Assembly: GCA_965261395.1 (NCBI GenBank)
Contig: OZ253462.1
Span: 2,368,001-2,432,000, forward strand
Origin: Candidatus Latescibacterota bacterium
Lineage (GTDB): Bacteria; Latescibacterota; UBA2968; UBA8231
Reading direction: 5' to 3'
DNA: 64,000 bases
The notes beneath the pieces were generated by a model, which saw only the letters and a program-made list of their open reading frames with translations, was not told where the DNA came from and did not search any database. This document shows, piece by piece, positions 13,225 through 53,431 of the stretch; position 1 is the stretch's first letter; the number at the start of each line of letters is the position of its first letter. The translations under genes and the position numbers were made by a program.

Positions 13225-13794
13225 TTAAAAACGATTTTTGAGCTGTCCCCAGGATTGTCCTGCAACTGCTGTAGAAGCGGGTTCCGGATAGAAGCCAGAT
13301 CCCAAGAGGAAATCTTGGCCGAGAGCGCTATAGGGAATGGCGTAGCTCACTTTAGGCGAGCCAGTTTCTTCGTCCCTTTCTACCGCTGGATTGTCCCAAA
13401 GATACTCGACGTAGCCGCCTCCTTCGGCCGCCGCTGCGATGAGCCCCTGTGTGATTTTGACTCCGTTAGAGTCTTCGAGATCAATCAAGTTTTGGCCCTC
13501 GAGGGCTGGATTAGCCGCGTGAAAGACTACGATACCATCAATGGCAATAACAAAGAGGTAGATGGATCCCTGCTTCCAAGTACCTTCGGCTCTGAATTCC
13601 CCCAAGAGAGCTATGTACTGGGGAAGGGTCGTAGCTTTATTCGCGTAGTCCTTTGCCGCGAGTACAAAGGCCTTCAGGGTTTCCCGGTCCACCACATCAG
13701 CGGCTGTTACCTCGGGGTCTTGGGCGACGGCGGGATGCACGGCGGGCAAGAGGGTGGCCAGCGCCAGCATGAGTACTGCTGTTAGACGCTTCAT
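13225..13794 (-). CDS. Secreted stand-alone single Cache-domain protein with C-terminal SWGQLK tail, copy 1
   Basis: Signal peptide; sCache_2-like motifs YLFV, FHAANPALEGQNLIDLEDSNG, GGGYVEYLWDNP, KVSY, GSGFY. Confidence 0.8.
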   Translation of the reverse strand: MKRLTAVLMLALATLLPAVHPAVAQDPEVTAADVVDRETLKAFVLAAKDYANKATTLPQYIALLGEFRAEGTWKQGSIYLFVIAIDGIVVFHAANPALEGQNLIDLEDSNGVKITQGLIAAAAEGGGYVEYLWDNPAVERDEETGSPKVSYAIPYSALGQDFLLGSGFYPEPASTAVAGQSWGQLKNRF

Positions 13795-15500: not shown

Positions 15501-16061
15501 CTAAAAGCGACTTTTGAGCTGTCCCCAGGACTGTCCTGCAACCGCCGTAGAAGCGGATCCCGGATAAAAGCCAGAGCCCAAGACGAAATTCTGGCCGAGG
15601 GCGGTATATGGGATGGCGTAGCTCACCTTAAGCGAGCCGGCGTCTTCGTCCCCTTCTACCGCTGGATCGTCCCAAAGATACTCGACGTAGCCTCCTCCCG
15701 CGGCCGCCGTAGCGAGGATCTCCTGTGTAATTTTGACTCCATTGGAGTCTTCGAGATCAATCAAGTTTTGGCCCTCGAGGTCTGGATTAGCCGCGTGAAA
15801 GACTACGATACCATCAGTGGTTCCGACAAAGAGGTAGATGGATCCCTGCTTCCAATCCCCGTCGGCCCTGAAGCTTTCCAAGGCACCTAAGTAATCGGGA
15901 AGGCTTTCAAAGCGATCCAAGTACTCTTTCGCCTCTAGTACAAAGGCTTTCAGGGATTCCCGATCCACCACGTCGCCGGCCGTTACTTTCACGTCGTCCT
16001 GAGCAACGGCGGGAAAGAGGCTGGCCAGCACTAGAATGAGTACTGCTGTCAGACGCTTCAC
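15501..16061 (-). CDS. Secreted stand-alone single Cache-domain protein with SWGQLK tail, copy 2
   Basis: GTG start with GGAGA RBS; near-identical C-terminal two thirds to copy 1. Confidence 0.8.
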   Translation of the reverse strand: MKRLTAVLILVLASLFPAVAQDDVKVTAGDVVDRESLKAFVLEAKEYLDRFESLPDYLGALESFRADGDWKQGSIYLFVGTTDGIVVFHAANPDLEGQNLIDLEDSNGVKITQEILATAAAGGGYVEYLWDDPAVEGDEDAGSLKVSYAIPYTALGQNFVLGSGFYPGSASTAVAGQSWGQLKSRF

Positions 16062-41891: not shown

Positions 41892-41994
41892 GCGTTTGCC
41901 GTTCAATTTGGGGAGTGAATAGAAGAAGTGCTTATTAAAGAAACACTTAGTATAAAGAATTTTGCATTGTTTGTCGGACCTTAATTTCATGTGG

Positions 41995-42011
41995 CCATTG
42001 TGTTACAATGG
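41995..42011 (+). promoter_or_regulatory. Extended -10 promoter overlapped by a palindromic candidate operator
   Basis: CCATTGT-GTT-ACAATGG inverted repeat containing TG-T-TACAAT, 16 nt upstream of ATG 42028. Confidence 0.55.
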
Positions 42012-42027
42012 ACAGAAAGGGCGCGTC

Positions 42028-44046
42028 ATGGTGGTTAAGATCCTCACATGGCTGCTGCTGGTATGCTGGGCCACGGCTAGCAGTGCCCAGCGGCAAAATT
42101 GGCAAATCGGCGGCGCGGGCTTGGCTTGGAGCGAGGGCGATTCTTCCACGGTGCTCGTCGATTTCGACTCAGTGCCCGGCGCTATTCAGCCCGTCTATAT
42201 CGACCCCGACCAAAGTCTGTTTTCGCTCTTTACCGACTGGGAGCCGCTCAAAGAGCCGCGCGAGTTGACCTATGTCGAAGGCGAGACGCCACGGGCTTGG
42301 AAGGGTGCGCAGGGCAACGAGACGACGGCCCACAATGGCACCTATATGGTCGATGGCGACAGTATGTCTTTCAATCCGCCGGTCTCTTCCAATCCCGAAT
42401 CGGTCTGGTACACCATTGATCTAGCCGTACCGGTGCCTGCGCACCGCTTTGGTTTTTTCACTCCGCCTCGGGGCTTTCGCGCCGACGGCATCCCCTTTGC
42501 CCAAGATGCCGTGCCGGCCTACGAGGTGTCTATCGCGGCGGAAGGCGATCCGAGTTGGCTCGAAGGGAGCCAACCCTACAAGCGCATTGGTCCATTGATT
42601 GCCGACGTGGCCGAAAATTTTATCGCCCGGGTGCAGATCGAATTTCCCAGACAATACGTGCGCTTCGTGCGCTACAAGCGGAAGACCTCGCTGTTGGATT
42701 CGGGGAGGGGAGGCAACACTAGCGTGAGTTCGGGGACCGCTTTCAAGGGGTCCATCGGCGACTTTGAACTCTTTGGCGAGGGGGTGCCGCGCAAGGCGGT
42801 TTACCGCTCGCGGATTTTCGCCTTGGAAAAGCCCGTCAACTTCGGTCGCCTGTCCTGGGCGGCAACGGCGCTGCGCCTAGTCGATGGAGAACGGGTGGAG
42901 GCACCCGATGCCGAGGTGGGGGTGGAGATTGAGGTGCGTACGGGGCGCGACGGGGATCCAAATATCTACCACGAATACACCGACCGCGGGGGTGAGGAAG
43001 TGGTGACGCGCGAGCGCTACGATTTGGTTTTGCAGCCGCGCTGGCGCGCGGGTCTCCTGCGCGACCCCCGGCCGGGAATGCGGGCCCCGATTACCTACGA
43101 TAGCGACAACTGGTCTTTCTGGTCGTTGCCCTTTTTTGAGTCGGGGCTGGTGCTTGACCTCAAGGGGGGGACCCATTTCCAGTTGCGGATTACACTCAAA
43201 AGCGAGGACTCCGCCGCATTCGTGCGGCTCGACTCGTTGTGGGTTGAGACCGCGCCGCTACTGGCTAGCCGGGTCGTGGGCGAGGTCGCGCTAGCCGGCG
43301 ACGTGCAGCCGGCCGGGGGCTTGACCCAAGTGCCGTTGGGGGAAGCGGCGGAACTGATCTACGACATCCGCGGCGAATTTGCCGGTGAGGGAGCAGGCTT
43401 TGACGCGCTGAGGATTCGCACTGGGACGCGGGCTGTGTTTACCCGGCTAGAGATGGGGAACCCTCCAAGGGCGATCGAGCCGGTTGAAGTCGTCGAGGGC
43501 GACGGGGAACTAGCGGTGGTGTTGCCGGAGCGGATCGGACCGGGAGACGCGGAGGGGGCACGGGTCGTCTTTGTCGCCGATGTGTTCTCGCTGGCCTGGA
43601 CGTTTGCGGGCGAGGTCTATAATGCAGGCGTCGATGCGCTACCCCAGCCCGTCGAACCGGGCGATGCCAGCGCCGAACTGGGGACCAATAGTCTGCGGGT
43701 TTTAGGGATGGCTGGGCAAAGCGATGGGCCGGTGGTAGGATTGGATCTTTCCACTAGGGTGCTGACGCCCAATGGCGACGGAGTCCACGACGAGGTCGAG
43801 ATCAGCTATGCGCTGGTGGGGTTGCCCGAGGATGTCCCCGTGGTGTTTAAGGTGTATTCGCTCGACGGGAGGCGGGTAGCCCAGCGGTCGTTGGGTGCGC
43901 AGCGCTTCGGTGCGCAGCGGGTGCGCTGGGATGGGCGCAATGGGGACGGGGTTTTATTGTCGCCCGGTCTCTATCTAGTTGAAGTAGCGCCTGAAGCCGA
44001 GCGGCAGGGGGTGCGTCGGTTGCGCCCATTAACACTAATCTACTGA
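42028..44046 (+). CDS. Large secreted protein with C-terminal FlgD/CHU_C-like domain (type A of pair 2)
   Basis: Signal peptide; WQIGG; VRTGRDGDP; WSFWS; LTPNGDGVHD...WDGRN...PGLY; ends LIY. Confidence 0.8.
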   Translation: MVVKILTWLLLVCWATASSAQRQNWQIGGAGLAWSEGDSSTVLVDFDSVPGAIQPVYIDPDQSLFSLFTDWEPLKEPRELTYVEGETPRAWKGAQGNETTAHNGTYMVDGDSMSFNPPVSSNPESVWYTIDLAVPVPAHRFGFFTPPRGFRADGIPFAQDAVPAYEVSIAAEGDPSWLEGSQPYKRIGPLIADVAENFIARVQIEFPRQYVRFVRYKRKTSLLDSGRGGNTSVSSGTAFKGSIGDFELFGEGVPRKAVYRSRIFALEKPVNFGRLSWAATALRLVDGERVEAPDAEVGVEIEVRTGRDGDPNIYHEYTDRGGEEVVTRERYDLVLQPRWRAGLLRDPRPGMRAPITYDSDNWSFWSLPFFESGLVLDLKGGTHFQLRITLKSEDSAAFVRLDSLWVETAPLLASRVVGEVALAGDVQPAGGLTQVPLGEAAELIYDIRGEFAGEGAGFDALRIRTGTRAVFTRLEMGNPPRAIEPVEVVEGDGELAVVLPERIGPGDAEGARVVFVADVFSLAWTFAGEVYNAGVDALPQPVEPGDASAELGTNSLRVLGMAGQSDGPVVGLDLSTRVLTPNGDGVHDEVEISYALVGLPEDVPVVFKVYSLDGRRVAQRSLGAQRFGAQRVRWDGRNGDGVLLSPGLYLVEVAPEAERQGVRRLRPLTLIY

Positions 44047-44050
44047 GAGC

Positions 44051-46414
44051 ATGGCGATGCGCTCGTTTTATGCGCTATGGGTGATGCTGCTATTGGGAAT
44101 AAGCGGCGCGGTATGGGCCGATGAGCTGCGCTTCGACCGTGCGGCAGCGTGGCGGACTTGGCAGATGCCCAACGACTTGATACAGATCGATGCCGACGGT
44201 AGGCTGCGGCTGACGAAGTTCCGCAAGGAAATCAACGCCGTGGCCAACGCCGGAGATTTTCGCCACGAGACGAAGGAGCGGGGCGAGGTGGTCGGCGGGA
44301 TCTGGGAGGCCAAGAGCAACCCGCAGACGGCAAATTTGATTGTCGATGGCGATCTGGAAACCTTCTGGCAACCCAACCCCGACGATGCGCTTGATCAGTG
44401 GTCGGTGCAGATCGATTTGGGCCGTCCGGTACTGGCGCGTCAGATTCGCTTGGTCTTTCCCGACCGCGAGGGGGCGCGGCCCTTGCGGCAATTCAGCGTC
44501 TTTCTCGCCTCGGGTGCCCGAATCCAGGCGCTCAACGATGTCTTCAAGTTTGAAGCGATCTATCGCACATCCAGACCCCATACCGCTACCGAACTGGTGA
44601 TTCCCTTGGAGTATCTAGGAACCGACAGCACCTATGTACTCGACGAGGGGCTGGCGCTCGATTTTGAGCGCGAGAAGCGCTTTCAAGTGATCCAGTATAT
44701 CATTATCGAAATCGACGAGCACAGCCCGGGCGTGGCGCTGGCGGAGGTCGAGGTTTTGGCGGTGGGGGACAATGTGAGCTTGGGCACGGCGGGTCGCGGT
44801 GGCAGTTTTCTCGAAGGCGGACGGACTACGGGCGCGGCCCTGATGTTCGACGGCGATATGGACAGCTTCGCGCTGTTGACCAGTGCCGAAGGCGGCTGGC
44901 ACGACGCGGGTGTGTGGTGGCGGGTAGATTTAGGGGCGGTGTTTTTTCTCGACGAGCTTTTCATTTACTTCAGCCAGCTAGGCGAAGGGCTACGCAGTCA
45001 GGTCCAAGGCGGCAACCCTTCGGCAGCGGGCGGGCTTTTCTTGGTCTCCGATGGCCGCCCGGCCGCGGGATCGGGATTGCCGGTACCCGAGCAGGTTGAC
45101 TACGAGGTACTGGTCGAAGATCGCTGTCGGCCCCAGTGTTTGGGGCGACTTTTTCACCAGCGCTACCTATTCGCCCCGCGCAAGATCCGCTACCTGCTCT
45201 GGCACGAGATAGACGGGGCGGCAACAGGCTTTGGTTGGGGCCTAGAGACCATGCTTTTTTCTCCAGGGTACCCGGCGCGCGTGGAGATGCGCTCGGGCTT
45301 TGTCGATTTAGCGACAGAAGCTGGCGACGGGCGGCCCCAGGTGATTGAGCGGCTGACGTGGGAAGCCCACCTGCCGCCGCAGACTAGAATCCAACTGCGC
45401 TCGCGGGCGGGCAACGCACTGCAGGAGGTGTACACTTTCTCCGACCGCAAAGGCGATATCGTCACCGAGGAGAAGTGGAACAGCTTGCCCAAGGTGTTAA
45501 AAGGCCCGATTGATACGACCTTGGTCGGCGGTGAAGATTGGGACGCTTGGAGCAATGTTTACCAGGCTTCGGGCGAGGCCTTCCAATCGGCGAGCCCGCG
45601 TCGCTTCGTGCAATTGGAGATGATTCTTGCAAGCGACGACCCGCACGTGGCTCCGGCAGTGGATGCGCTGACGATAGAGTTTACCGACGCGCTAGTGCAG
45701 TCGGCGCGGGGGCAAATCTGGCCACGGGAAGCTCGGCTCAACGAGGATACGCGCTTTACCTATACGCTGTGGCCGAGCACCGACGGGCAGGATAGCGGCT
45801 TTGATCGCTTGCGCTTTCGCATTCCCGGCGCGACCACGGGCAACGTGGCCCTGCGGATCGCCGGTGAGGACGTAGCGCCTCAGCAGGTGGCGCTGAGCGG
45901 CGATTCACTGTTGGTCTTGTTGCCGCACGTGGTGGTCGCCGATTCGGTGGAAGTGGATTTTACGGTGCGTCTTTGGGACAATGCAGCGCTGTTCGCACTC
46001 GACCTAGGCGCGAGTGAGCGCCCCGGGATCTGGCAGTCGGTAGTGCCGAGCGAACGACGGGCCAATATCGTGTTGTTACCCGGCCTGCCCGTCCAGGCTG
46101 CGCTCGTCGGCGACGTGAAGATCGCGCCCGCGGCGTTTACGCCCAACGGTGATGGGGTCAATGACTCGGTGGAGATCGACTTTATAGTTTTCAAGGCGCA
46201 GGGCATCCAGCCACAGGTACGGATTTTTGATGTTGCCGGTCGGTTGGTCGCCCAGCCGGGTGGCACCAAGGTTGCCGGACGCTGGCACTTTCGCTGGTCG
46301 GGGCACGCTGCGGACGGCGCGTTGGCGTTGCCGGGGATGTACCTCTGCCGGATTGATCTAGGGACGGCGAGCGGTAGCGCAGCGGTCTTGCGGCCGCTCG
46401 CCTTGGCCTATTAG
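44051..46414 (+). CDS. Large secreted protein with discoidin-like modules and C-terminal FlgD/CHU_C-like domain (type B of pair 2)
   Basis: Signal peptide; WRTWQMP; DGDLETFWQP; IDLGR; FTPNGDGVND...PGMY; ends LAY. Confidence 0.8.
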   Translation: MAMRSFYALWVMLLLGISGAVWADELRFDRAAAWRTWQMPNDLIQIDADGRLRLTKFRKEINAVANAGDFRHETKERGEVVGGIWEAKSNPQTANLIVDGDLETFWQPNPDDALDQWSVQIDLGRPVLARQIRLVFPDREGARPLRQFSVFLASGARIQALNDVFKFEAIYRTSRPHTATELVIPLEYLGTDSTYVLDEGLALDFEREKRFQVIQYIIIEIDEHSPGVALAEVEVLAVGDNVSLGTAGRGGSFLEGGRTTGAALMFDGDMDSFALLTSAEGGWHDAGVWWRVDLGAVFFLDELFIYFSQLGEGLRSQVQGGNPSAAGGLFLVSDGRPAAGSGLPVPEQVDYEVLVEDRCRPQCLGRLFHQRYLFAPRKIRYLLWHEIDGAATGFGWGLETMLFSPGYPARVEMRSGFVDLATEAGDGRPQVIERLTWEAHLPPQTRIQLRSRAGNALQEVYTFSDRKGDIVTEEKWNSLPKVLKGPIDTTLVGGEDWDAWSNVYQASGEAFQSASPRRFVQLEMILASDDPHVAPAVDALTIEFTDALVQSARGQIWPREARLNEDTRFTYTLWPSTDGQDSGFDRLRFRIPGATTGNVALRIAGEDVAPQQVALSGDSLLVLLPHVVVADSVEVDFTVRLWDNAALFALDLGASERPGIWQSVVPSERRANIVLLPGLPVQAALVGDVKIAPAAFTPNGDGVNDSVEIDFIVFKAQGIQPQVRIFDVAGRLVAQPGGTKVAGRWHFRWSGHAADGALALPGMYLCRIDLGTASGSAAVLRPLALAY

Positions 46415-46446: not shown

Positions 46447-47472
46447 ATGGCAGTTAAGACGTGTTTGATGATCGGTGCCAGCGGCATGGCTGGCGGTTGG
46501 ATCGAGCGGCTGACTCAGCGCCTCGGCGACAGAGTCCAGATCGTCGGGTTGGTGGATGTCAACGAGGAAGTGCTCGCCGCCCAAGGAGCCAAGCTCGGCT
46601 TGGGGGCCGAGCAGCTTTTTACCGATTACGAAGAGGCTTGCGCCAAGGTGCAGGCTGATTTCTGCGGCATTGCCACCCCGCCGCAGTTCCACAGCCCGCA
46701 GGCCATCGCCGCGCTGGAAGCGGGGATGCCGGTTATCTGCGAGAAGCCGATTGCCGATACCTTAGCAGCGGCCAAGGCCATGGCCGCCAAGGCCGAGGAG
46801 ACGGGGTTGCCCTGCGCGATTATCCAGAATTACCGCTACGCGCCCAACAAGCAGGAGGTGGTGCGGATTCGCGACGAAGGGAGACTGGGGCGGCTGCAGC
46901 ACATCTTTGGCCGCTACGCCTGCGACTATCGCGAATACATGTCGTGGGGCAAGGCGTGGCGACACGACATGGATTTCAGCTTGCTCTTTGAAGGCTCGGT
47001 GCATCACTTCGATATGATGCTCTTCTTGTCGGGGGGGAATTGCGAGGTGTTTCAAGGATTTGGGTGGAACCCGGCGTGGTCGAGCTTTAAACACTATTCG
47101 AGCGGATTTTATCTGATGAGGATGGACAATGGAGTGCACACAGCGTACGAGGGGAACAGTTCGGCGGCGGGGATTAAGAGTTGTTGGCACAGCGAGTACT
47201 ATCGCTTGGAGTTCGAGGAAGGGACGGTGGAGATAGGCGCGGGAGACGAGGTGCGAATTTATCGGGTGGGGCAGGAGGTGGAGGTGTATCCGGCGCCAGC
47301 CATGGAGTGGGCCGGGCACGAGTATTTGCTCAAGGAGTTTGTGGATTGGCTGGAGGGGGGCAAGGCGTCGGCGACGAGGATTGAAGATAATTTGCAGAGT
47401 TTCGCGCTAGTGATTGCGGCGATGGAGACGACAGAGGATGGGGAGCCCAAGCGAATTGCGGATTATTTGTAA
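46447..47472 (+). CDS. Gfo/Idh/MocA family oxidoreductase
   Basis: IGASGMA, ATPPQFH, ICEKPIA, NYRY, SVHHFD. Confidence 0.9.
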   Translation: MAVKTCLMIGASGMAGGWIERLTQRLGDRVQIVGLVDVNEEVLAAQGAKLGLGAEQLFTDYEEACAKVQADFCGIATPPQFHSPQAIAALEAGMPVICEKPIADTLAAAKAMAAKAEETGLPCAIIQNYRYAPNKQEVVRIRDEGRLGRLQHIFGRYACDYREYMSWGKAWRHDMDFSLLFEGSVHHFDMMLFLSGGNCEVFQGFGWNPAWSSFKHYSSGFYLMRMDNGVHTAYEGNSSAAGIKSCWHSEYYRLEFEEGTVEIGAGDEVRIYRVGQEVEVYPAPAMEWAGHEYLLKEFVDWLEGGKASATRIEDNLQSFALVIAAMETTEDGEPKRIADYL

Positions 47473-47587
47473 AGTCTCGGCTTTAGAAACTAAGACGCAG
47501 ACGCACGGCTCTGGTCGTGCCATTGAAACTGAACAGGAATCGCGGAATCGCCTGTCCTAGCCGTCGTTGTTGCCGCGCAGCAGGAAC
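47350..47587. repeat. Direct repeat copy C1 (Gfo 3' end + spacer + orphan tail of the membrane gene)
   Basis: Aligns with 49423-49688; the minus strand encodes orphan FLLRGNNDG*. Confidence 0.9.
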
Positions 47588-47693
47588 TTGCCGGGGTATG
47601 GAAAAAAGTACATCATATTCTGTTGAATCATCTCTATGTCGCTTTTGCGAGACGATCTGCACACGATTGTCTTGACAACCAAGGAGAGTCGCC

Positions 47694-49436
47694 ATGATTC
47701 GCTTCATCCTTTTTGTCCTCGTCCTCACCCTAGTCGCCTGCTCCGACCCTGCACCGGTAGCACCCCACCCTGCGGGCAAAGCCAACTGTGCCTTGTGCGG
47801 GTTCTTGGGCGACGACACCCACACCATTGCCGATGGGCAAGGTGCCCACGAAAGCCCCGAGCCCGACAGCCTGTCCGTTGTGTTCGCGGACTCCACTCTA
47901 GAGGGCGCAGTGAGGCAAGCATTGGATCGACTCCAAGGACGCCTCACACCGGAAGACGTCGCGTCCCTAACCCGTATATCGGCCAGTGGTAAGACCATTC
48001 ACAGTTTAGCCGGACTGGAGCACTTTACAGCCCTGAAAAAGCTAGATCTAAAGGACAACCAGATCGCCGATATAACACCGTTGGCGACCTTGGCCGAGGT
48101 GGATTCGTTGGCTCTGCAGGACAACCAGATTGTCGATGTGACGCCGCTAACCGGCTTGACCGGCCTGTCTTGGCTGGAACTAGGGAACAACCTGATTGAA
48201 GACGTGGCACCCTTGGTTGCCAACACCGGTCTGGGTGAAGGCGATCATGTCAACTTGGAGAACAACCCCCTCAGCGCCCAAGCTCTCAGTGAACAGATCC
48301 CCGCCTTGCAAGCACGAGGCGTCGAGGTTGAGTACACCATTGCCGACGAGCAAGACACTGATACAAGCTCCGACGGCGCTTCCATATTCGACGCTTTTAA
48401 CGCCATAAGCTCCGAATTGCCATCAATTGGTAGTATAGAGACTCGTCTTCTCACACATAGTGGGCGTGGGCCAAGATGGTCATCAGATGGTCAACGTATT
48501 GTTTTTTACTCCAGTCGTAACGGCCGGTGGGATATATATAGTATCGACTCTGATGGAACAAACGAAATCCGCCTAACGACACACGAAACTGGTGAATGGT
48601 CTCCGACGTGGTCGCCTGACGGTCTCAGAATTGCCTTCGTGTCTTACCGCGACGGTTACGCCGGTCACCAGAGTATTCATATCATGGACTCTGATGGAAA
48701 AAACGAAACTCGACTAACAGAAAATAACCGTCATGACGAATATCCAAGGTGGTCACCTGATGGTCGGCGTATAGCATACGTATCTGTTCTTCGTGAAAAT
48801 AATCGTCAAAACAGAGAGATATATGTCATGGACGCCGATGGTTCCAACAAGACCCGGCTCACGCAACATGTTGAGGATGACTGGTTGCCGGCGTGGTCGC
48901 CCGATGGTCAAAGTATTGCATTCTTGTCTCTACGCAATCTTGACATTGAGGTATATATCATGGATGCCGATGGGCGCAACAAGAAAAGACTCACGCAAAG
49001 GAATCCCAGCCATTACCCAGCGTGGTCCCCTGCACCTGATAGCAGACGCATTGCTTACAATTCACTTCCTTCATTTGATGATTATGGTAAGGGGCGTATT
49101 GCCTGGGGAGCGAACCATGAGATATATGTCATGGATGCCGATGGCCGCAACAAGAAAAGACTCACATGGGTTGAAGGCTCAGATTTCTGGCCAGCGTGGT
49201 CGCCTGATGGGGAACGTATTGCCTTTGTGTCTGAGCGTGATGGCGATATGGAGATATATGTCATGGACGCTGATGGGCGCAACGAGAAAAGACTCACATA
49301 CGGCGCTGGGAACGATGGTAATGTACCAAACGCCCTTGCGTGGTCGCCTGATCCTGATAGTCATAGAATCGTCTTTGAGCGAGGTCGGGACGAAGAAATA
49401 TATATCGTGGAGTTCATGGAAATTGAAGGGCGGTAA
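47694..49436 (+). CDS. Lipoprotein with internalin-like leucine-rich repeats and TolB-like (PD40) beta-propeller
   Basis: Lipobox LVAC; LxxLxLxxNxIxDxxPL repeats; WSPDG..IAF.S...EIYVMDADG.N..RLT repeats; AAGGAG RBS. Confidence 0.88.
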   Translation: MIRFILFVLVLTLVACSDPAPVAPHPAGKANCALCGFLGDDTHTIADGQGAHESPEPDSLSVVFADSTLEGAVRQALDRLQGRLTPEDVASLTRISASGKTIHSLAGLEHFTALKKLDLKDNQIADITPLATLAEVDSLALQDNQIVDVTPLTGLTGLSWLELGNNLIEDVAPLVANTGLGEGDHVNLENNPLSAQALSEQIPALQARGVEVEYTIADEQDTDTSSDGASIFDAFNAISSELPSIGSIETRLLTHSGRGPRWSSDGQRIVFYSSRNGRWDIYSIDSDGTNEIRLTTHETGEWSPTWSPDGLRIAFVSYRDGYAGHQSIHIMDSDGKNETRLTENNRHDEYPRWSPDGRRIAYVSVLRENNRQNREIYVMDADGSNKTRLTQHVEDDWLPAWSPDGQSIAFLSLRNLDIEVYIMDADGRNKKRLTQRNPSHYPAWSPAPDSRRIAYNSLPSFDDYGKGRIAWGANHEIYVMDADGRNKKRLTWVEGSDFWPAWSPDGERIAFVSERDGDMEIYVMDADGRNEKRLTYGAGNDGNVPNALAWSPDPDSHRIVFERGRDEEIYIVEFMEIEGR

Positions 49437-49688
49437 GGCATCGGCGACGAGGATTGAAGATAATTTGCAGAGTTTTGCGCTGGTGATTGCGGCGCTGGAG
49501 ACGACGGTGGATGGGAAGCCCAAGCGAATTGCGGATTATCTGTAAGAAGCAATTCGCTTGGGCGCACTACTTTAGAAACTGAGGCGCAGACGCACGGCTC
49601 TGGTCGCGCCGTTAAAACCGAACTGATTCACTTCCCAAGGATACTGAAGCGCCTGTCCTAGCCGTCGTTGCCTCCCCGCAGCAGGAAC
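49423..49688. repeat. Direct repeat copy C2 (orphan Gfo 3' end + spacer + functional membrane gene tail)
   Basis: Encodes orphan GKASATRIEDNLQSFALVIAALETTVDGKPKRIADYL* (stop 49545, offset 2073 from 47472). Confidence 0.9.
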
Positions 49689-50098
49689 ACGCCCATCGCG
49701 CCCGCAAGCAGCGGCAGCGTGGCGTCGATGAGGATCCACACGAGGCTGGCCGTATCCCCTCCTGCGGCGGTGAATGCAGGACTGAGCAGGATAAACCAGT
49801 TCCAGAAGAACAGGATGCCCACGAACAGGAAGCCGTAGAATTGCGCGTTGGCGGCAACAAACTCGCGCGTCACCGCGCCGCTGTCCCCCTCGCTGTCAGC
49901 GGCTTTCTTGCGGAGGTAGCCGAATATCACGCCCAAGGCGATGGCCAGCGCCATCAACGGGTCCAAGATGTCCCAAAGCGGGCTATACGGCTGCCCTTTG
50001 CTCGAGGTGTGATAGAGCGGTTCGACTACGGTGTGGACTGCGACCGCAACCGCCATCAGGACGAGAAATATGCCACTAATTCGCTTGAGCGTATCCAT
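49658..50098 (-). CDS. Hypothetical 4-TM membrane protein
   Basis: 146-aa ORF, strong AGGAGG RBS, four hydrophobic segments. Confidence 0.75.
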   Translation of the reverse strand: MDTLKRISGIFLVLMAVAVAVHTVVEPLYHTSSKGQPYSPLWDILDPLMALAIALGVIFGYLRKKAADSEGDSGAVTREFVAANAQFYGFLFVGILFFWNWFILLSPAFTAAGGDTASLVWILIDATLPLLAGAMGVFLLRGGNDG

Positions 50099-50151: not shown

Positions 50152-51029
50152 CTATGGTGATTCAATAGGAAAGGAACGCGTCCGCACATTGACTTCGAGG
50201 CGGGTTCCGCCGCCGCCTTGGAGGACGCCGCGCGTCGGCGACACGTCGCGGTAATCGCGCCCTACTGCGATATGTACTTTCCCCCCTTGCCAGCGAAGCT
50301 CTGGTTGGTCGGATCGAAGCCGATCCAGCCCAGCTCTGGCAGCCGGCTTTCGACCCAGGCGTGCGTGGCATTGTTTAGCGCCTGCTCGCCGGGATCGGTT
50401 GGGTTCAGGTAGCCCGAGACATAGCGGGCGGGGATACCCCAAGAGCGCGCGATAGCGATCATCAGGTGGGCATAATCTTGGCAGACGCCCCGACCGGTTT
50501 CGAGGATGTGCTCGACGGGGGATTCCGCCGAGGTGCTTCCCGGAATGTATTGCAAGCAGGTGTGGAGCGTGTGCGACAGTTGCAGCAGACTTTCGAGCGG
50601 GTCGTCCATAGGCGCGATGTGATGCCGGTCGACGAATGCGGTGAGTGCGGGCGAGGGGCGCACCAATGCGCTCGGGTGCGTGAAGTCCCAATAGACGCAC
50701 GATTCTCCAAGGGAGCGGATCTCTTCCCAGGCACCGGGGTGCAAACGCGCTGGGAGTGGCGGGGCGGACGCGACCTCGACCGTGGCGCGGGTCGTGATTT
50801 CCAAGGTTTGGTGCGCTTGGTGGAGGTCGAGGAGGTGCCGCGTGTTGCCGAAAGAGTCCGTCTCGCGGTTTAGGTTGGCCGGAGGTTGCGTCTCAATCTC
50901 AAAGTCTAGGAGCCGCTGCCCTCGATCTTCGCGCGGCTCCAGACACAGGAGCATCACGCACTGCTGGGCTAGGGCTGTGTAGCAGTAGCGAGAGAGGTGT
51001 TCGATCTCGTAACGGACGGCTCTAGTCAT
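50152..51029 (-). pseudogene. Transglutaminase family protein, frameshifted near the C-terminus
   Basis: GVCQDYAH, ARYVSGY, THAWVE, GFDPTN; the conserved tail IAVGRDYRDVSPTRG is in another frame after the C6/T3 run at 50278-50286. Confidence 0.82.
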
Positions 51030-51033
51030 GGCG

Positions 51034-52002
51034 TTAGTGGACTGGAGAGTCTTCGACGGCATAATCGATATACGCCGTGGTCACGAGCGCGTGGAGCTTG
51101 CGGCACTCCTCGCCCACCTGCACGAGAAGTGCTTCCCGATCTTCCCGGTCCGGCCACTCGTAGCGGACTAGGGTACACAGTCGGCCGGCGAGCCGCTCGG
51201 CCGCGGCTCCAGCGTGCGAGTTAGGGCTCGCCCCGATGGCTGCCAGCTCTGCTGCTAGCGCGTCGAGCGCACAGCACAATGAACTGGGCAGCAGAGGGTC
51301 GGTGACTAGCAGGTCCAACACCCGGTCCGGCTGGATTTCGACACTATAGTTGCGTTTGTAAGCGTCGAATGCCTGGCATGAACGCAACAGGCTCGTCCAG
51401 TCCGTGTCCGCGGTCTCGCCCTGCGCACGGCCAGCGGCGAACTGGGCGAGGAGCAATGCGACCAGAAACTGGGCGCGTTCGATGAACTGGCCGAGCCGCA
51501 TGAAGTGCCAGCCCTCGTCGCGGTACATGGTTGCGTCGGCCACCCCGGTGAAGGTGTTGATCTCGCGCGTGGTCTCCGCGTAAAAGCTCTCTGGGGAGAC
51601 CTTCCAGATGTCTTCGATGTCGAGGTCGCGGATGCGCAGCCAAGCCAAATTCAGGCAGGTCCACATTTCGGCGCTGATGCAGTGGCGCACTTGGCGGGCG
51701 TTCTCGCGGCCGAAGGCGAGGTAGTTCCGCACTGAATTGGAGTTGTCGCGCTCAAACGTGAGATCGCCCGCTAGGGTGTAGGAATCGGCCAAGGTGTAGT
51801 CGTCGCTCTCGTTGGTCTCGATATCGCCCCAAGGCGGCTGCTGCCCTAGGGCCGTGTAGATCCGACTCCAGCCGAAGTGAATTTCAGCGATCGGTCGATC
51901 CACCAGCGCTTCCACCTGCAAACGCAGCAGGCCGCACAGATATTTCGTCCGCTCGAGGTAGCGGCCTACCCAGTACAGTCCTTGGGCGCTGCGCGAGAGC
52001 AT
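51034..52002 (-). CDS. Alpha-E domain protein (DUF403)
   Basis: MLSR...LYWVGRYLER, RENARQVR, GWHFMRLGQFIERA. Confidence 0.88.
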   Translation of the reverse strand: MLSRSAQGLYWVGRYLERTKYLCGLLRLQVEALVDRPIAEIHFGWSRIYTALGQQPPWGDIETNESDDYTLADSYTLAGDLTFERDNSNSVRNYLAFGRENARQVRHCISAEMWTCLNLAWLRIRDLDIEDIWKVSPESFYAETTREINTFTGVADATMYRDEGWHFMRLGQFIERAQFLVALLLAQFAAGRAQGETADTDWTSLLRSCQAFDAYKRNYSVEIQPDRVLDLLVTDPLLPSSLCCALDALAAELAAIGASPNSHAGAAAERLAGRLCTLVRYEWPDREDREALLVQVGEECRKLHALVTTAYIDYAVEDSPVH

Positions 52003-53431
52003 TCAGTCCTCCAGCACCCAGAGGTCCTTGCCGCCGCCTTGGCTGGAATTGACCACGAGGCTGCCCCGACGTAGCGCCACGCGGCAAAAGGCCCCGGGCA
52101 CGATGCGGGTCTCGCGGCCGTGGAGGACAAAAGGACGCAGATCAACGTGGCGCGGCGCGGCCCTCAATGAAGCAGGGCGCGCTTGAGAGCGCGAGCACCG
52201 GCTGAGAAATAAAATCGGCTGGGTTGGCGCGAAGCTCCTCGGCGTAGGCTGCGCGCTCTGCGGGCGTTGCGTGCGGACCGATGAGCATACCGTAGCCGCC
52301 GGATTCGCCCACGCGCTTCACTACTAGGTTTTCGAGGTTGTCGAGGGTGTAATCTAGATCCTCCGGCCGTCGGCACAGGTGGGTCTGCACGTTGGCGAGG
52401 ATTGGCTCTTCGCCTAGATAGTAGCGGATCATGTCGGGGACGTAGGCATAGACACTCTTGTCATCGGCCACGCCCGTCCCCGGTGCGTTTGCCAAAGCTA
52501 CGTGCCCGAGCTTAAAGGCGTGCAGCAGCCCAGGCACCCCGAGTAGGGAGTCGGGGCGGAAGACGAGGGGGTCGAGGAAGTCGTCGTCCACCCGGCGGTA
52601 GATCACATCGACGCGCCGTAGTCCCGTGGTGGTGCGCATGTACACGAAGCCGTCCTTGACTAGCAGGTCGCGGCCTTCCACGAGTGATGCGCCAATCTCA
52701 TGCGCTAGGAACATATGTTCGTAAAAGGCTGAGTTATAGACTCCGGGCGTGAGCAGGACGATGCAGGGGTCGGTGCATCCATTGGGGGCGAGGTCGCGCA
52801 AGGTCTGGAGTAGCACCTGCCCGTAGTGCTCTACCTCTCGCACTCGGCAGCTCCGGTAGAGGCGACGCAAGCTGGTCTTCACCACCTTGCGGTTGGCGAT
52901 CATATAGGACACGCCCGAGGGCACTCGTAGGTTGTCCTCAAGCACCACGAAGCCGTCGTCTTGGGTGCGCACTAGGTCGGTGCCGCAGATGGCGACCCAC
53001 GTGCCGTGGGGGACGGAGACGCCGCGCATCTCGATGAGGTACTGGGGACAGCCGCGCACTACGTCGGCCGGGATCACGCCATCGGCGATGATGCGGGCTT
53101 CGCCGTACACGTCCTCTAGGAAGCGGTTCAGGGCAGCGATGCGCTGGGTGAGGCCGCTTTCGAGATGTTGCCACTCGGCAGCCGAGAGGAGCCGGGGCAC
53201 GCAGTCGATGGGAATGATGCGCTCGTCGGCCTCGTCGTCGTCATAGACGGTGAAGGTGATGCCTTCGGTAGAGAAGGAGTGCGTTACTCGCTCTTGGATT
53301 GCGCCGATTTCCTCGTCTGAGAGCCGGCACAAGGTGTCGTATAATTCGCGGCAGTGTGGGCGGGGCGTGCCGTCGGGCAGGAACATCTCATCGTAGGTTG
53401 CAGCATTGAGATCGTAGGCGTCGAAGTGCAT
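52003..53431 (-). pseudogene. Circularly permuted type 2 ATP-grasp protein, frameshifted near the C-terminus
   Basis: VLEDNLRVPSGVSY, LLTPGVYNSAFYEH, YRRVDDDFLDP; the tail [10 protein letters not shown]...[17 protein letters not shown] is out of frame from about 52160. Confidence 0.85.

Follow-up and report, generated by a model that had tools for sequence, protein, structure and literature searches.

A predicted lipoprotein gene between two allele-like copies of a convergent gene junction in a Candidatus Latescibacterota bacterium, probably moved between species by homologous recombination

The usual accounts of how a bacterium gains a single accessory gene invoke mobile elements with enzymes of their own. 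How, then, does such a gene come to lie between two copies of its own target where no such enzyme is found nearby, and how does the same join occur in four species when the core genes of these species are 2-3 times more diverged than it is? The locus that raises this question lies in a window of 64,000 nucleotides (nt) of DNA (contig OZ253462.1 of GenBank assembly GCA_965261395.1, positions 2,368,001 to 2,432,000) from a Candidatus Latescibacterota bacterium, whose genome, a single contig of 6.55 Mb, is called G000 here; positions are those of the window unless a genome and contig are given. An open reading frame (ORF) of 580 amino acids (aa), which we call the cargo gene, stands between a gene for an oxidoreductase of the GFO/IDH/MocA family and a gene for a small membrane protein. 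The junction, meaning both gene ends and the spacer between them, is present on either side of it. We think it probable that the locus is an accessory-gene cassette in a duplicated convergent junction, which arose by one old duplication with insertion and was later moved between species by homologous recombination.

The oxidoreductase gene (46447..47472, plus strand, 341 aa) and the convergent membrane-protein gene (49658..50098, minus strand, 146 aa) are both complete, and in most relatives the orthologue of the second adjoins the first. The duplicated part comprises the last 46 codons of the oxidoreductase gene, the spacer and the last 11-12 codons of the membrane gene. The left copy (47334..47593, 260 nt) holds the working oxidoreductase tail with its stop codon at 47470-47472, a spacer without a second hairpin arm, and an orphan tail of the membrane gene (47557..47593, minus strand) that reads FLLRGNNDG and ends in a stop at 47557-47559. 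The right copy (49409..49694, 286 nt) is the reverse: an orphan oxidoreductase tail (49409..49545, plus strand) with its own TAA at 49543-49545, a spacer with both hairpin arms, and the working end of the membrane gene, FLLRGGNDG and stop. The initial annotation of this DNA had described the junction as present twice with its tails exchanged in this way, and a repeat search and alignment confirm it. Of the extents given there, about 40 and about 9 codons, the first was too short: comparison with relatives moves the left border 17 nt further out, where GGAGTT starts both copies. The borders are sharp, with at most 1-3 ambiguous bases, and fall just past the last propeller strand of the cargo and 11-12 codons ahead of the membrane-gene stop.

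The two copies align as three co-linear blocks of direct repeats: 47351-47472 with 49424-49545 (122 nt, 91%, spacing 2073), 47481-47534 with 49570-49623 (54 nt, 89%, spacing 2089) and 47545-47592 with 49646-49693 (48 nt, 85%, spacing 2101). The stepwise spacing thus corresponds to two indels of 16 and 12 nt, both of them extra sequence in the right copy. The 16 extra bases make up the second arm of a hairpin, GCCCAAGCGAATTGC / GCAATTCGCTTGGGC, perfect over 15 bp and with a loop of 16 nt (49518..49563, arms at 49518-49532 and 49549-49563), which an inverted-repeat search found; the 12 further bases lie elsewhere in the right copy. The first arm is coding sequence of the oxidoreductase tail, and the left copy retains this arm alone (47445-47459). 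A repeat search covering the whole of G000 matched these two places only (2 matches). The insert has a G+C content of 0.52 versus 0.62 in the flanks.

Over 39 codons, the two oxidoreductase tails differ by seven synonymous and four non-synonymous changes, with 0.25 differences per synonymous site (pS) and 0.045 per non-synonymous site (pN), a pN/pS of 0.18 that departs from the neutral expectation (binomial p = 0.006). The remark in the initial annotation that many of the differences are synonymous is thereby borne out. A pS of 0.25 is the level found between species, and the tails differ like two working alleles as distant as two species. In the 109 nt that align well there are 8 differences, and 27 of the 109 columns vary among the working tails of other species. 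Both states of four of the 8 differences occur in working tails elsewhere; two are private to the orphan, both of them protein-changing, and two are private to the working copy.

The same picture emerges when whole copies are compared with those of relatives. Identity of the left copy reaches 92% with the plain junction of G019 (237 nt aligned) and 88% with the left copy of G002 (240 nt), versus 78%, with gaps, with the right copy of its own genome. The right copy finds its best overall match in the plain junction of G009 (83.5% over 272 nt) and is closer to it than to that of the sister species G022. The left spacer belongs to a haplotype without the hairpin arm and the right spacer to the hairpin haplotype, both of which are seen as plain junctions in cargo-free genomes; the two spacers of G000 are different haplotypes, and the claim goes no further. 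The right spacer of a second cargo carrier, G010, is a third, GC-hairpin haplotype that is also found in G021, G011, G005 and G024. Since the spacer haplotypes of the right-hand copies differ, these copies have recombined with local junction alleles, as exchange through the junction copies would give.

These comparisons bear on the simplest origin, that the duplication was made in G000 as a target duplication on insertion and that its copies diverged in place. The sharp borders of the repeat and the lower G+C of the insert agree with such an origin. However, the left copy is nearer to junctions of two other species than to its own partner, and the differences between the tails resemble those between working alleles. 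Moreover, three other species have the right join, and one of those has the left join as well, which refutes G000 as the place of origin; we regard divergence in place as very improbable. A target duplication as the founding event in an ancestor is counted within the explanation that we prefer.

The structure is no artefact of assembly. Two strain variants of the junction might be imagined to have been stitched around a strain-specific gene, the assembly being of the metagenome type and the public contigs being short, with none of those listed spanning both copies. The joins in question are nevertheless present in the independently assembled genomes of the three other species just mentioned, and one of these, G044, shares the orphan tail's own changes. 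In three runs, each from a different study, short public contigs cross the left join (run X1, 47379-47744, without error; X5 with 1 difference and X9 with 3), and the right join is bridged without error in one run, possibly of the source sample (X1, 49295-49470). The chance that the locus was stitched together is therefore negligible. No joint of an empty site was seen among the public-contig matches listed.

Some public contigs carry other joints. Those of run X10 join 47592 to 47679 with TCATC between them, those of X9 join 49693 back to 47679 with the same TCATC, and those of X5, X9 and X10 join 49566 back to 48383. These three odd joints, all in other samples, may be variant alleles of related strains, and the joint in X9 from 49693 to 47679 could be a circular or tandem form.

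The history of the cassette was followed through 31 genomes of the genus, one per species, compared at the junction. Four of them (G000, G044, G002 and G010) carry the cargo and 13 have a plain junction with a spacer of 43-171 nt; one holds another insert of 1.1 kb (G018), one a remnant of the membrane gene (G042), 11 lack the membrane gene in the available DNA, and one, 58% complete, gave no match (G017). A relative with the duplication and no cargo, which the initial annotation had named as evidence to the contrary, was looked for among the 31 genomes and none was seen, all 13 cargo-free plain junctions being single-copy. The four carriers have kept different parts of the duplication. G000 has both copies. 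The left join is common to G000 and G002; the latter has kept the left copy, with its orphan membrane tail, and has lost the rest of the orphan oxidoreductase tail together with the spacer, so that the cargo stop is fused onto the membrane-gene stop. In G010 the right orphan tail has a 45-nt deletion and a TAG, and only the first bases of the left spacer remain; the right copy of G044 has the 2-nt-shorter version seen in G000, with TAA. The orphan membrane tail is lost in both G010 and G044. These different remnants are most simply explained by one founding event followed by separate decay in each lineage. The initial annotation had proposed either a recombination of two coding alleles from different strains or an old long target duplication. 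The first agrees with the interspecies level of pS, the shared states of half the tail differences and the two spacer haplotypes; the second agrees with the presence of the same join of cargo and orphan tail in 4 of the 31 genomes, so the event predates G000. Both readings are supported, as a blend.

The junction is also a variable spot in genomes without the cargo. The 1.1-kb insert of G018 (L044, 1546-2650) contains a membrane-like ORF of 194 aa and no duplication, G045 (L071) has the spacer of 171 nt, and G008 (L047) and G046 (G046:C13:1616838-1618047) have no membrane gene. In G004 and G006 other genes stand behind the oxidoreductase gene, one of which we take, from its TSPPY motif, to be a putative DNA methyltransferase. 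A query with the transglutaminase gene from the right-hand side of the locus, run against G004, G006, G007, G043 and G046, found it in G046 only, and by this comparison the right-hand block would be missing or too diverged in the other four.

A tree of rpoB from 30 genomes scatters the carriers. Four changes are needed to explain their distribution: G000 is sister to the cargo-free G022, G044 is sister to the cargo-free G009, and G002 falls in a distant clade of cargo-free genomes. The rpoB data reject a clade of carriers by the approximately unbiased test (p-AU 6e-161), for a group that was named after the tree was seen. The cargo tells another story in its synonymous divergence (dS; standard errors of pS about 0.02-0.035). 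Between G000 and G044 the propeller part of the cargo has a dS of 0.160 versus 0.376 for rpoB, 0.337 for the oxidoreductase gene and 0.428 for the alpha-E gene downstream; between G002 and G010 the values are 0.140 versus 0.495, 0.335 and 0.439, respectively. Across the two pairs it is 0.28-0.31, versus 0.41-0.47 for rpoB. With a dS below that of both rpoB and the flanks, the cargo alleles are younger than the species that carry them. Moreover, G044 and its near sister G009 differ little in rpoB (0.074) and the alpha-E gene (0.113) but strongly in the oxidoreductase gene (0.387) and the surface-protein gene upstream (0.350); an oxidoreductase gene so much more diverged than rpoB means that the left flank was replaced in one of them. 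From these sequence comparisons we infer that the cargo has been exchanged between species by homologous recombination at the locus.

The same data serve to weigh descent without any transfer between species, in which the cassette was inherited vertically from the ancestor of the main clade of the genus and became patchy by repeated precise loss between the copies. Direct repeats of 260 nt that are about 90% identical are a ready substrate for deletion, and such a deletion would restore a plain junction, of which 13 exist; the left-type spacer of the cargo-free G019 and the rpoB tree fit this history as well. However, in both G000-G044 and G002-G010 the dS of the cargo does not reach half the rpoB value and amounts at most to about half the value of either flank, and it is lower between the pairs too. 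The cargo groups G000 with G044 and G002 with G010, contrary to rpoB, and the discordance of oxidoreductase and rpoB between G044 and G009 speaks against purely vertical descent at this place. We consider this history unlikely.

Several observations weigh against exchange by homologous recombination, the explanation that we prefer. The membrane gene has a dS of 0.251 between G000 and G044, between the values of the cargo and the flanks, and the ends of the exchanged tract are thus not mapped. Sliding-window identity of the sister pairs G044/G009, G000/G022 and G002/G005 gave no clean imported tract over an uneven background of 92-95%, and for G000/G022 the co-linearity filter dropped the central part of the comparison. 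Conversion among the PD40 repeats of the cargo, or an odd codon use going with its low G+C, could distort dS, though neither should lower it between species. With one genome per species, a recent loss and a recent gain in a lineage cannot be told apart, and G019, with its left-type spacer, could stand for the source lineage as well as for a loss by way of the short repeat of the membrane tail. The public pieces listed include no single read or contig across both copies. The nearest PF00589 match lies 1.19 Mb off (G000:C1:3611975), in a search that covered tyrosine recombinases alone and not serine recombinases or transposases by family near the locus.

The right join shows how the cargo gene came to end where it does. 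As the initial annotation had noted, the cargo's TAA at 49434-49436 falls within GGT AAG of the orphan oxidoreductase tail; the borrowed part is in fact longer than the stop, the first ~28 nt of the orphan tail encoding the end of the cargo protein, EFMEIEGR, as well as supplying the TAA. The join itself, GTG|GAGTT, is common to all four carriers, whose cargos end in EEIY[IL]VEF. In G010 and G002 the protein continues as EEIY(L/I)VEFVD and stops at TAG, and the codons concerned, GAG TTT GTG GAT TAG, are those of the oxidoreductase gene, GAG TTT GTG GAT TGG (KEFVDW), with TGG changed to TAG. This match indicates that the reading frame of the cargo was first continuous with the orphan tail and that a nonsense change later shortened it. 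By this codon comparison, the original stop of the cargo is the TAG made from the oxidoreductase TGG codon and kept in two species. In G000 and G044 the stretch is 2 nt shorter and carries several substitutions, and the shifted frame adds four more codons (MEIEGR in G000, VEIEGQ in G044) before TAA. All three orphan tails that survive have the T that creates the TAA, versus one of 16 working tails. Read in this way, the last residues of the cargo, from EF onwards, come from the orphan tail as much as its stop does.

What moved the cassette in the first place is the next question, and the insert offers no answer of its own. Its one ORF gave matches to LRR and PD40 domains only, with no integrase or transposase domain in Pfam, and none of the 8 inverted-repeat pairs found lies at the insert ends. 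A transposon or insertion sequence with target-site duplication was rejected on these grounds, and on the length of the duplication, 260-286 nt. The architecture is closer to that of prophage e14 in the icd gene of Escherichia coli: direct repeats of a working tail and an orphan C-terminal fragment, icdC, bound the insert, and recombination between them removes it and makes a chimeric gene (PMC13626634). As with e14 and with phage 21, which also leaves icdC, the working tail here adjoins the insert, the orphan tail lies at the far end, and the tails differ mostly at synonymous sites. However, e14 has its own site-specific recombination system, and no integrase was found here; unlike e14, the insert is a single gene, the repeat spans the ends of two convergent genes, and the cargo ORF is fused to the orphan tail. 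Of the marks of such elements, the duplicated gene 3' end with one working and one orphan copy is present, and neither a recombinase, in the search for tyrosine recombinases, nor a conserved core at both joins was found.

The copies might on this comparison be attL and attR of an e14/icd-like site-specific element with a surrogate tail, which has lost its integrase and most of its body. The placing of the two tails and their mostly synonymous differences fit. Yet no integrase lies in or beside the 1.8-kb insert, the nearest PF00589 match being the distant one given above, and a cargo fused in frame to the orphan tail makes an untidy end for an element. Eight other cassettes of like build in G000, described below, have repeats of 156-387 nt in unrelated targets and no end motif in common; indeed, the ends of 12 repeat-flanked inserts in G000 showed no shared end motif or core, PD40 similarity aside. 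We therefore consider a decayed site-specific element quite improbable.

In its behaviour between genomes the cassette, as we prefer to read it, resembles the minimal mobile elements of Neisseria (Saunders and Snyder 2002; definition in PMC3787668). Likewise, close relatives have different content between one and the same pair of conserved flanking genes (4 with cargo, 13 empty, 1 with another insert), mobility genes are absent, and exchange would occur by homologous recombination in the flanks, as suggested by a cargo dS of 0.14-0.16 versus 0.34-0.50 for flanks and rpoB and by the left flank of G044. To our knowledge, minimal mobile elements have not been described as bracketed by a long target duplication. 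The genes for Rhs and contact-dependent inhibition (CDI) toxins offer a further parallel: a new gene end recombines into the conserved part, and the old end is pushed further down, where it persists as an orphan that has a repeat in common with it. In those genes it is the gene's own functional tip that is replaced, whereas here an unrelated gene has been inserted and both neighbours keep equivalent tails. The locus has the architecture of e14/icd minus the recombinase and the population behaviour of minimal mobile elements plus a long duplicated target. It belongs to known kinds. In the literature searched, subscription journals aside, we found no report of cassettes that lack an integrase and are enclosed by a duplicated target hundreds of bases long, and the titles listed for long target site duplications in bacteria, as far as they reveal their subject, concern casposons and eukaryotic elements.

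Two integrase-free routes could give an insert flanked by duplicated target, and both fix incoming DNA with partial homology. PMC3240628 describes homology-facilitated illegitimate recombination, in which one join is homologous and the other illegitimate, and PMC3784515 describes tandem duplications triggered by transformation, in which a repeat pairs in an alternative way on sister chromatids and a duplication results. Both are laboratory observations in competent species, and the merodiploids described span 100-900 kb, as against 0.26 kb here.

The sequence of events that we favour is as follows. In one event older than G000, the lipoprotein gene was placed between two copies of a stretch of ~260 bp, from codon 296 of the oxidoreductase gene to codon -11 of the membrane gene, leaving both neighbouring genes whole. 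The frame of the cargo ran into the orphan oxidoreductase tail, which gave it its last residues and a stop: in G010 and G002 this is the TAG that arose from TGG, whereas G000 and G044 use a TAA reached after a shift of frame. The orphan parts were trimmed differently in each lineage, and in G000 the N-terminal CARDB module of the cargo was exchanged for an LRR module at a shared linker. The cassette and its flanking copies would have passed between species of the genus by homologous recombination, with the junction copies and the neighbouring genes as arms, which would explain both the patchy spread and the allele-like difference between the copies of G000; the direct repeats would also permit scar-free loss. 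As to the founding event, there is close to an even chance that incoming DNA already carrying a copy of the junction recombined, by a single crossover ('ends-in') or by a homologous join on one side and an illegitimate one on the other. It is a serious though lesser possibility that the gene entered illegitimately at a staggered break or through a copying switch. A tandem duplication followed by deletion seems unlikely, and so, to the same degree, does a site-specific system that was since lost.

The cargo gene itself (47694..49436, plus strand) encodes a putative signal peptide, a leucine-rich-repeat (LRR) module, an acidic linker and a seven-bladed propeller of PD40 repeats (Pfam PD40, PF07676, 3.3e-49; LRR_4, 2.4e-11), with its last codons and stop inside the right copy. 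It is preceded by a leader (47594..47693, plus strand) with AAGGAG at 47681-47686, 7 nt ahead of the ATG, of which positions 47606-47682 are 80% identical over 77 nt to the leader in G002. The signal peptide, MIRFILFVLVLTLVAC..., read directly from the cargo sequence, has a lipobox-like LVAC. Judging from its domains alone, the protein is probably a surface-exposed binding lipoprotein, and its dN/dS of 0.36-0.70 indicates that the gene is under constraint. PADLOC assigned the cargo to 0 families. A scan of 47200-49900 gave 0 promoter-like sites, versus 1.8 expected, and one terminator-like site, inside the membrane gene, and a look-up of RNA data sets listed none that contain the sequence.

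The protein is a composite. Its LRR module (47679..48388, plus strand) shares 87% DNA identity with the first module of a paralogue of 559 aa (G000:C1:4886665-4887374) and stands where the other three carriers have CARDB. The swap point is the linker EQDTDTSSD, common to the paralogue and to the cargos of G000, G044 and G002, which appears to be a recurring module border. At G000:C1:4880600-4895000, LRR lipoprotein genes or fragments akin to the N-terminal module form an array with more than 10 members, many with one in-frame TAA in the match. The PD40 module (48389..49408, plus strand) has 91, 83 and 81% DNA identity to those of G044, G002 and G010, respectively, and a G+C of 0.49 versus 0.59 for the genome. 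No donor gene for it was found in 132 genomes of the class or in G000 itself: matches at E <= 1e-60 occur in 7 of the 132 genomes, 4 of them at this locus, the best of the others is 57% identical, and the best paralogue within G000 56%.

An AlphaFold model of the propeller part from an alignment of 8 rows reached a predicted local distance difference test score (pLDDT) of 84 and a predicted template-modelling score (pTM) of 0.85. Its first strand is ETRLL and its last EIYIVEF, and the final four residues have a pLDDT <50. We read the model as a complete seven-bladed propeller whose final strand would end with two borrowed residues, followed by a loose tail, the closure of the ring being read from the order of the strands. 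Foldseek placed seven-bladed propellers of S9 peptidases first (TM score 0.75-0.78), with TolB at 0.56. The label TolB given to the cargo by the initial annotation was dropped: TolB_N is not among its 12 Pfam matches, the blades number seven and not six, and the neighbours are an oxidoreductase and a small membrane protein.

The genes on both sides form sets that are conserved in relatives and ordinary. The oxidoreductase matches PF01408 (6.3e-18, 66 bits), PF22725 (33.9 bits) and PF02894 (27 bits), all above their cut-offs, and with an N-terminal Rossmann domain and the family's C-terminal domain both predicted it belongs to the GFO/IDH/MocA family; an orthologue is present in 38 of 41 related genomes. 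The membrane protein matched no Pfam family above its cut-off. Upstream (41962-46414) lie genes for two large secreted proteins with F5/8 type C and CHU_C/FlgD-Ig-like ends. Downstream, from 50262 to 53431, a transglutaminase-like gene is followed by two further ORFs, which we take to be alpha-E and circularly permuted ATP-grasp proteins.

Is the build of this locus peculiar to it? A 15-mer scan of G000 for isolated same-strand repeats 400-12000 nt apart gave 39 pairs, of which 11 were picked by eye and inspected closely. Eight of the 11 resemble this locus: repeats of 156-387 nt, 91-98% identical, contain a gene end or lie in an intergenic junction, and flank 1-5 complete ORFs of at least 100 aa without a recombinase or transposase domain. 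At least nine such cassettes thus occur in G000, this locus included. The window also contains, apart from the locus, an isolated direct-repeat pair of 187 nt, 2276 nt apart (13393-13579 and 15669-15855; G000:C1:2381393 and 2383669).

Relatives were compared for four of the eight. One cassette (L176, G000:C1:5214777-5215034 / 5219615-5219876; copies of 258 and 262 nt, 92% identical) sits in a convergent junction of CreD-like and PhyH genes and carries a Hachiman-type pair, a HamA-like protein of 258 aa (2e-21) and a HamB-like protein of 1144 aa with a HIRAN domain (1e-124); it is common to G022 and G012 and in part to G046, and at least 14 relatives are empty with a single copy. Another (L177, G000:C1:509057-509248 / 513017-513208; copies of 192 nt, 97% identical) duplicates the 3' part of a PhyH gene around a 3.8-kb insert that encodes a C-5 cytosine methylase, a protein with a PD-Lambda-5_A-like N-terminus and one unknown ORF. 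It was found in G000 only, at least 8 relatives being empty with one copy. Its copies have 5 differences, all at sites that vary among species, and one copy agrees with G001 at 5 of 5 and the other with the sister G022 at 4 of 5. A two-gene cassette in a convergent PhyH/nucleotidyltransferase junction is common to G022, at least 10 relatives are empty there, and the different inserts that G003 and G042 have at this place each bring a partial duplication of their own. The fourth, located behind an AIR-synthase-related gene, is common to G002, where the second copy spans 505 nt.

The eight comprise, besides L176 and L177, six loci with direct repeats at a gene end or junction, the first two of which were among the four compared with relatives. 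These six, L175 (G000:C1:4996724-4996879 / 5002337-5002492), L174 (G000:C1:1650940-1651326 / 1654545-1654931), L173 (G000:C1:3693444-3693675 / 3697412-3697643), L178 (G000:C1:4512270-4512528 / 4514195-4514453), L179 (G000:C1:6267839-6267995 / 6273831-6273987) and L181 (G000:C1:2934146-2934317 / 2938885-2939056), have as cargos two large unknown proteins, an unknown protein of 609 aa, another PD40-dockerin protein, an RmuC-like protein by a SIR2/Dsr1-like gene, an AAA-ATPase/PD-(D/E)XK protein, and a TPR protein with an AAA_22-like partner.

The locus is a clean natural case of a gene that gained its C-terminus and stop codon from the displaced fragment of a neighbour, with two successive solutions kept in different species. 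The recurrence of its build in G000 is the more interesting lead. We tentatively propose, as one possibility among others, that the copies are the working part: integrase-free cassettes, each carrying a 150-400-bp copy of its own target, would be inserted into the empty junction of a related cell by host homologous recombination, which would regenerate both copies, keep the neighbouring genes intact and allow excision without a scar, in this lineage and perhaps in many uncultured phyla. If the target does serve as a portable homology arm, this would account for the circulation of defence and surface genes in lineages with few classical mobile elements, and an orphan gene tail behind an insert would be a simple signature by which such traffic could be traced in metagenomes.

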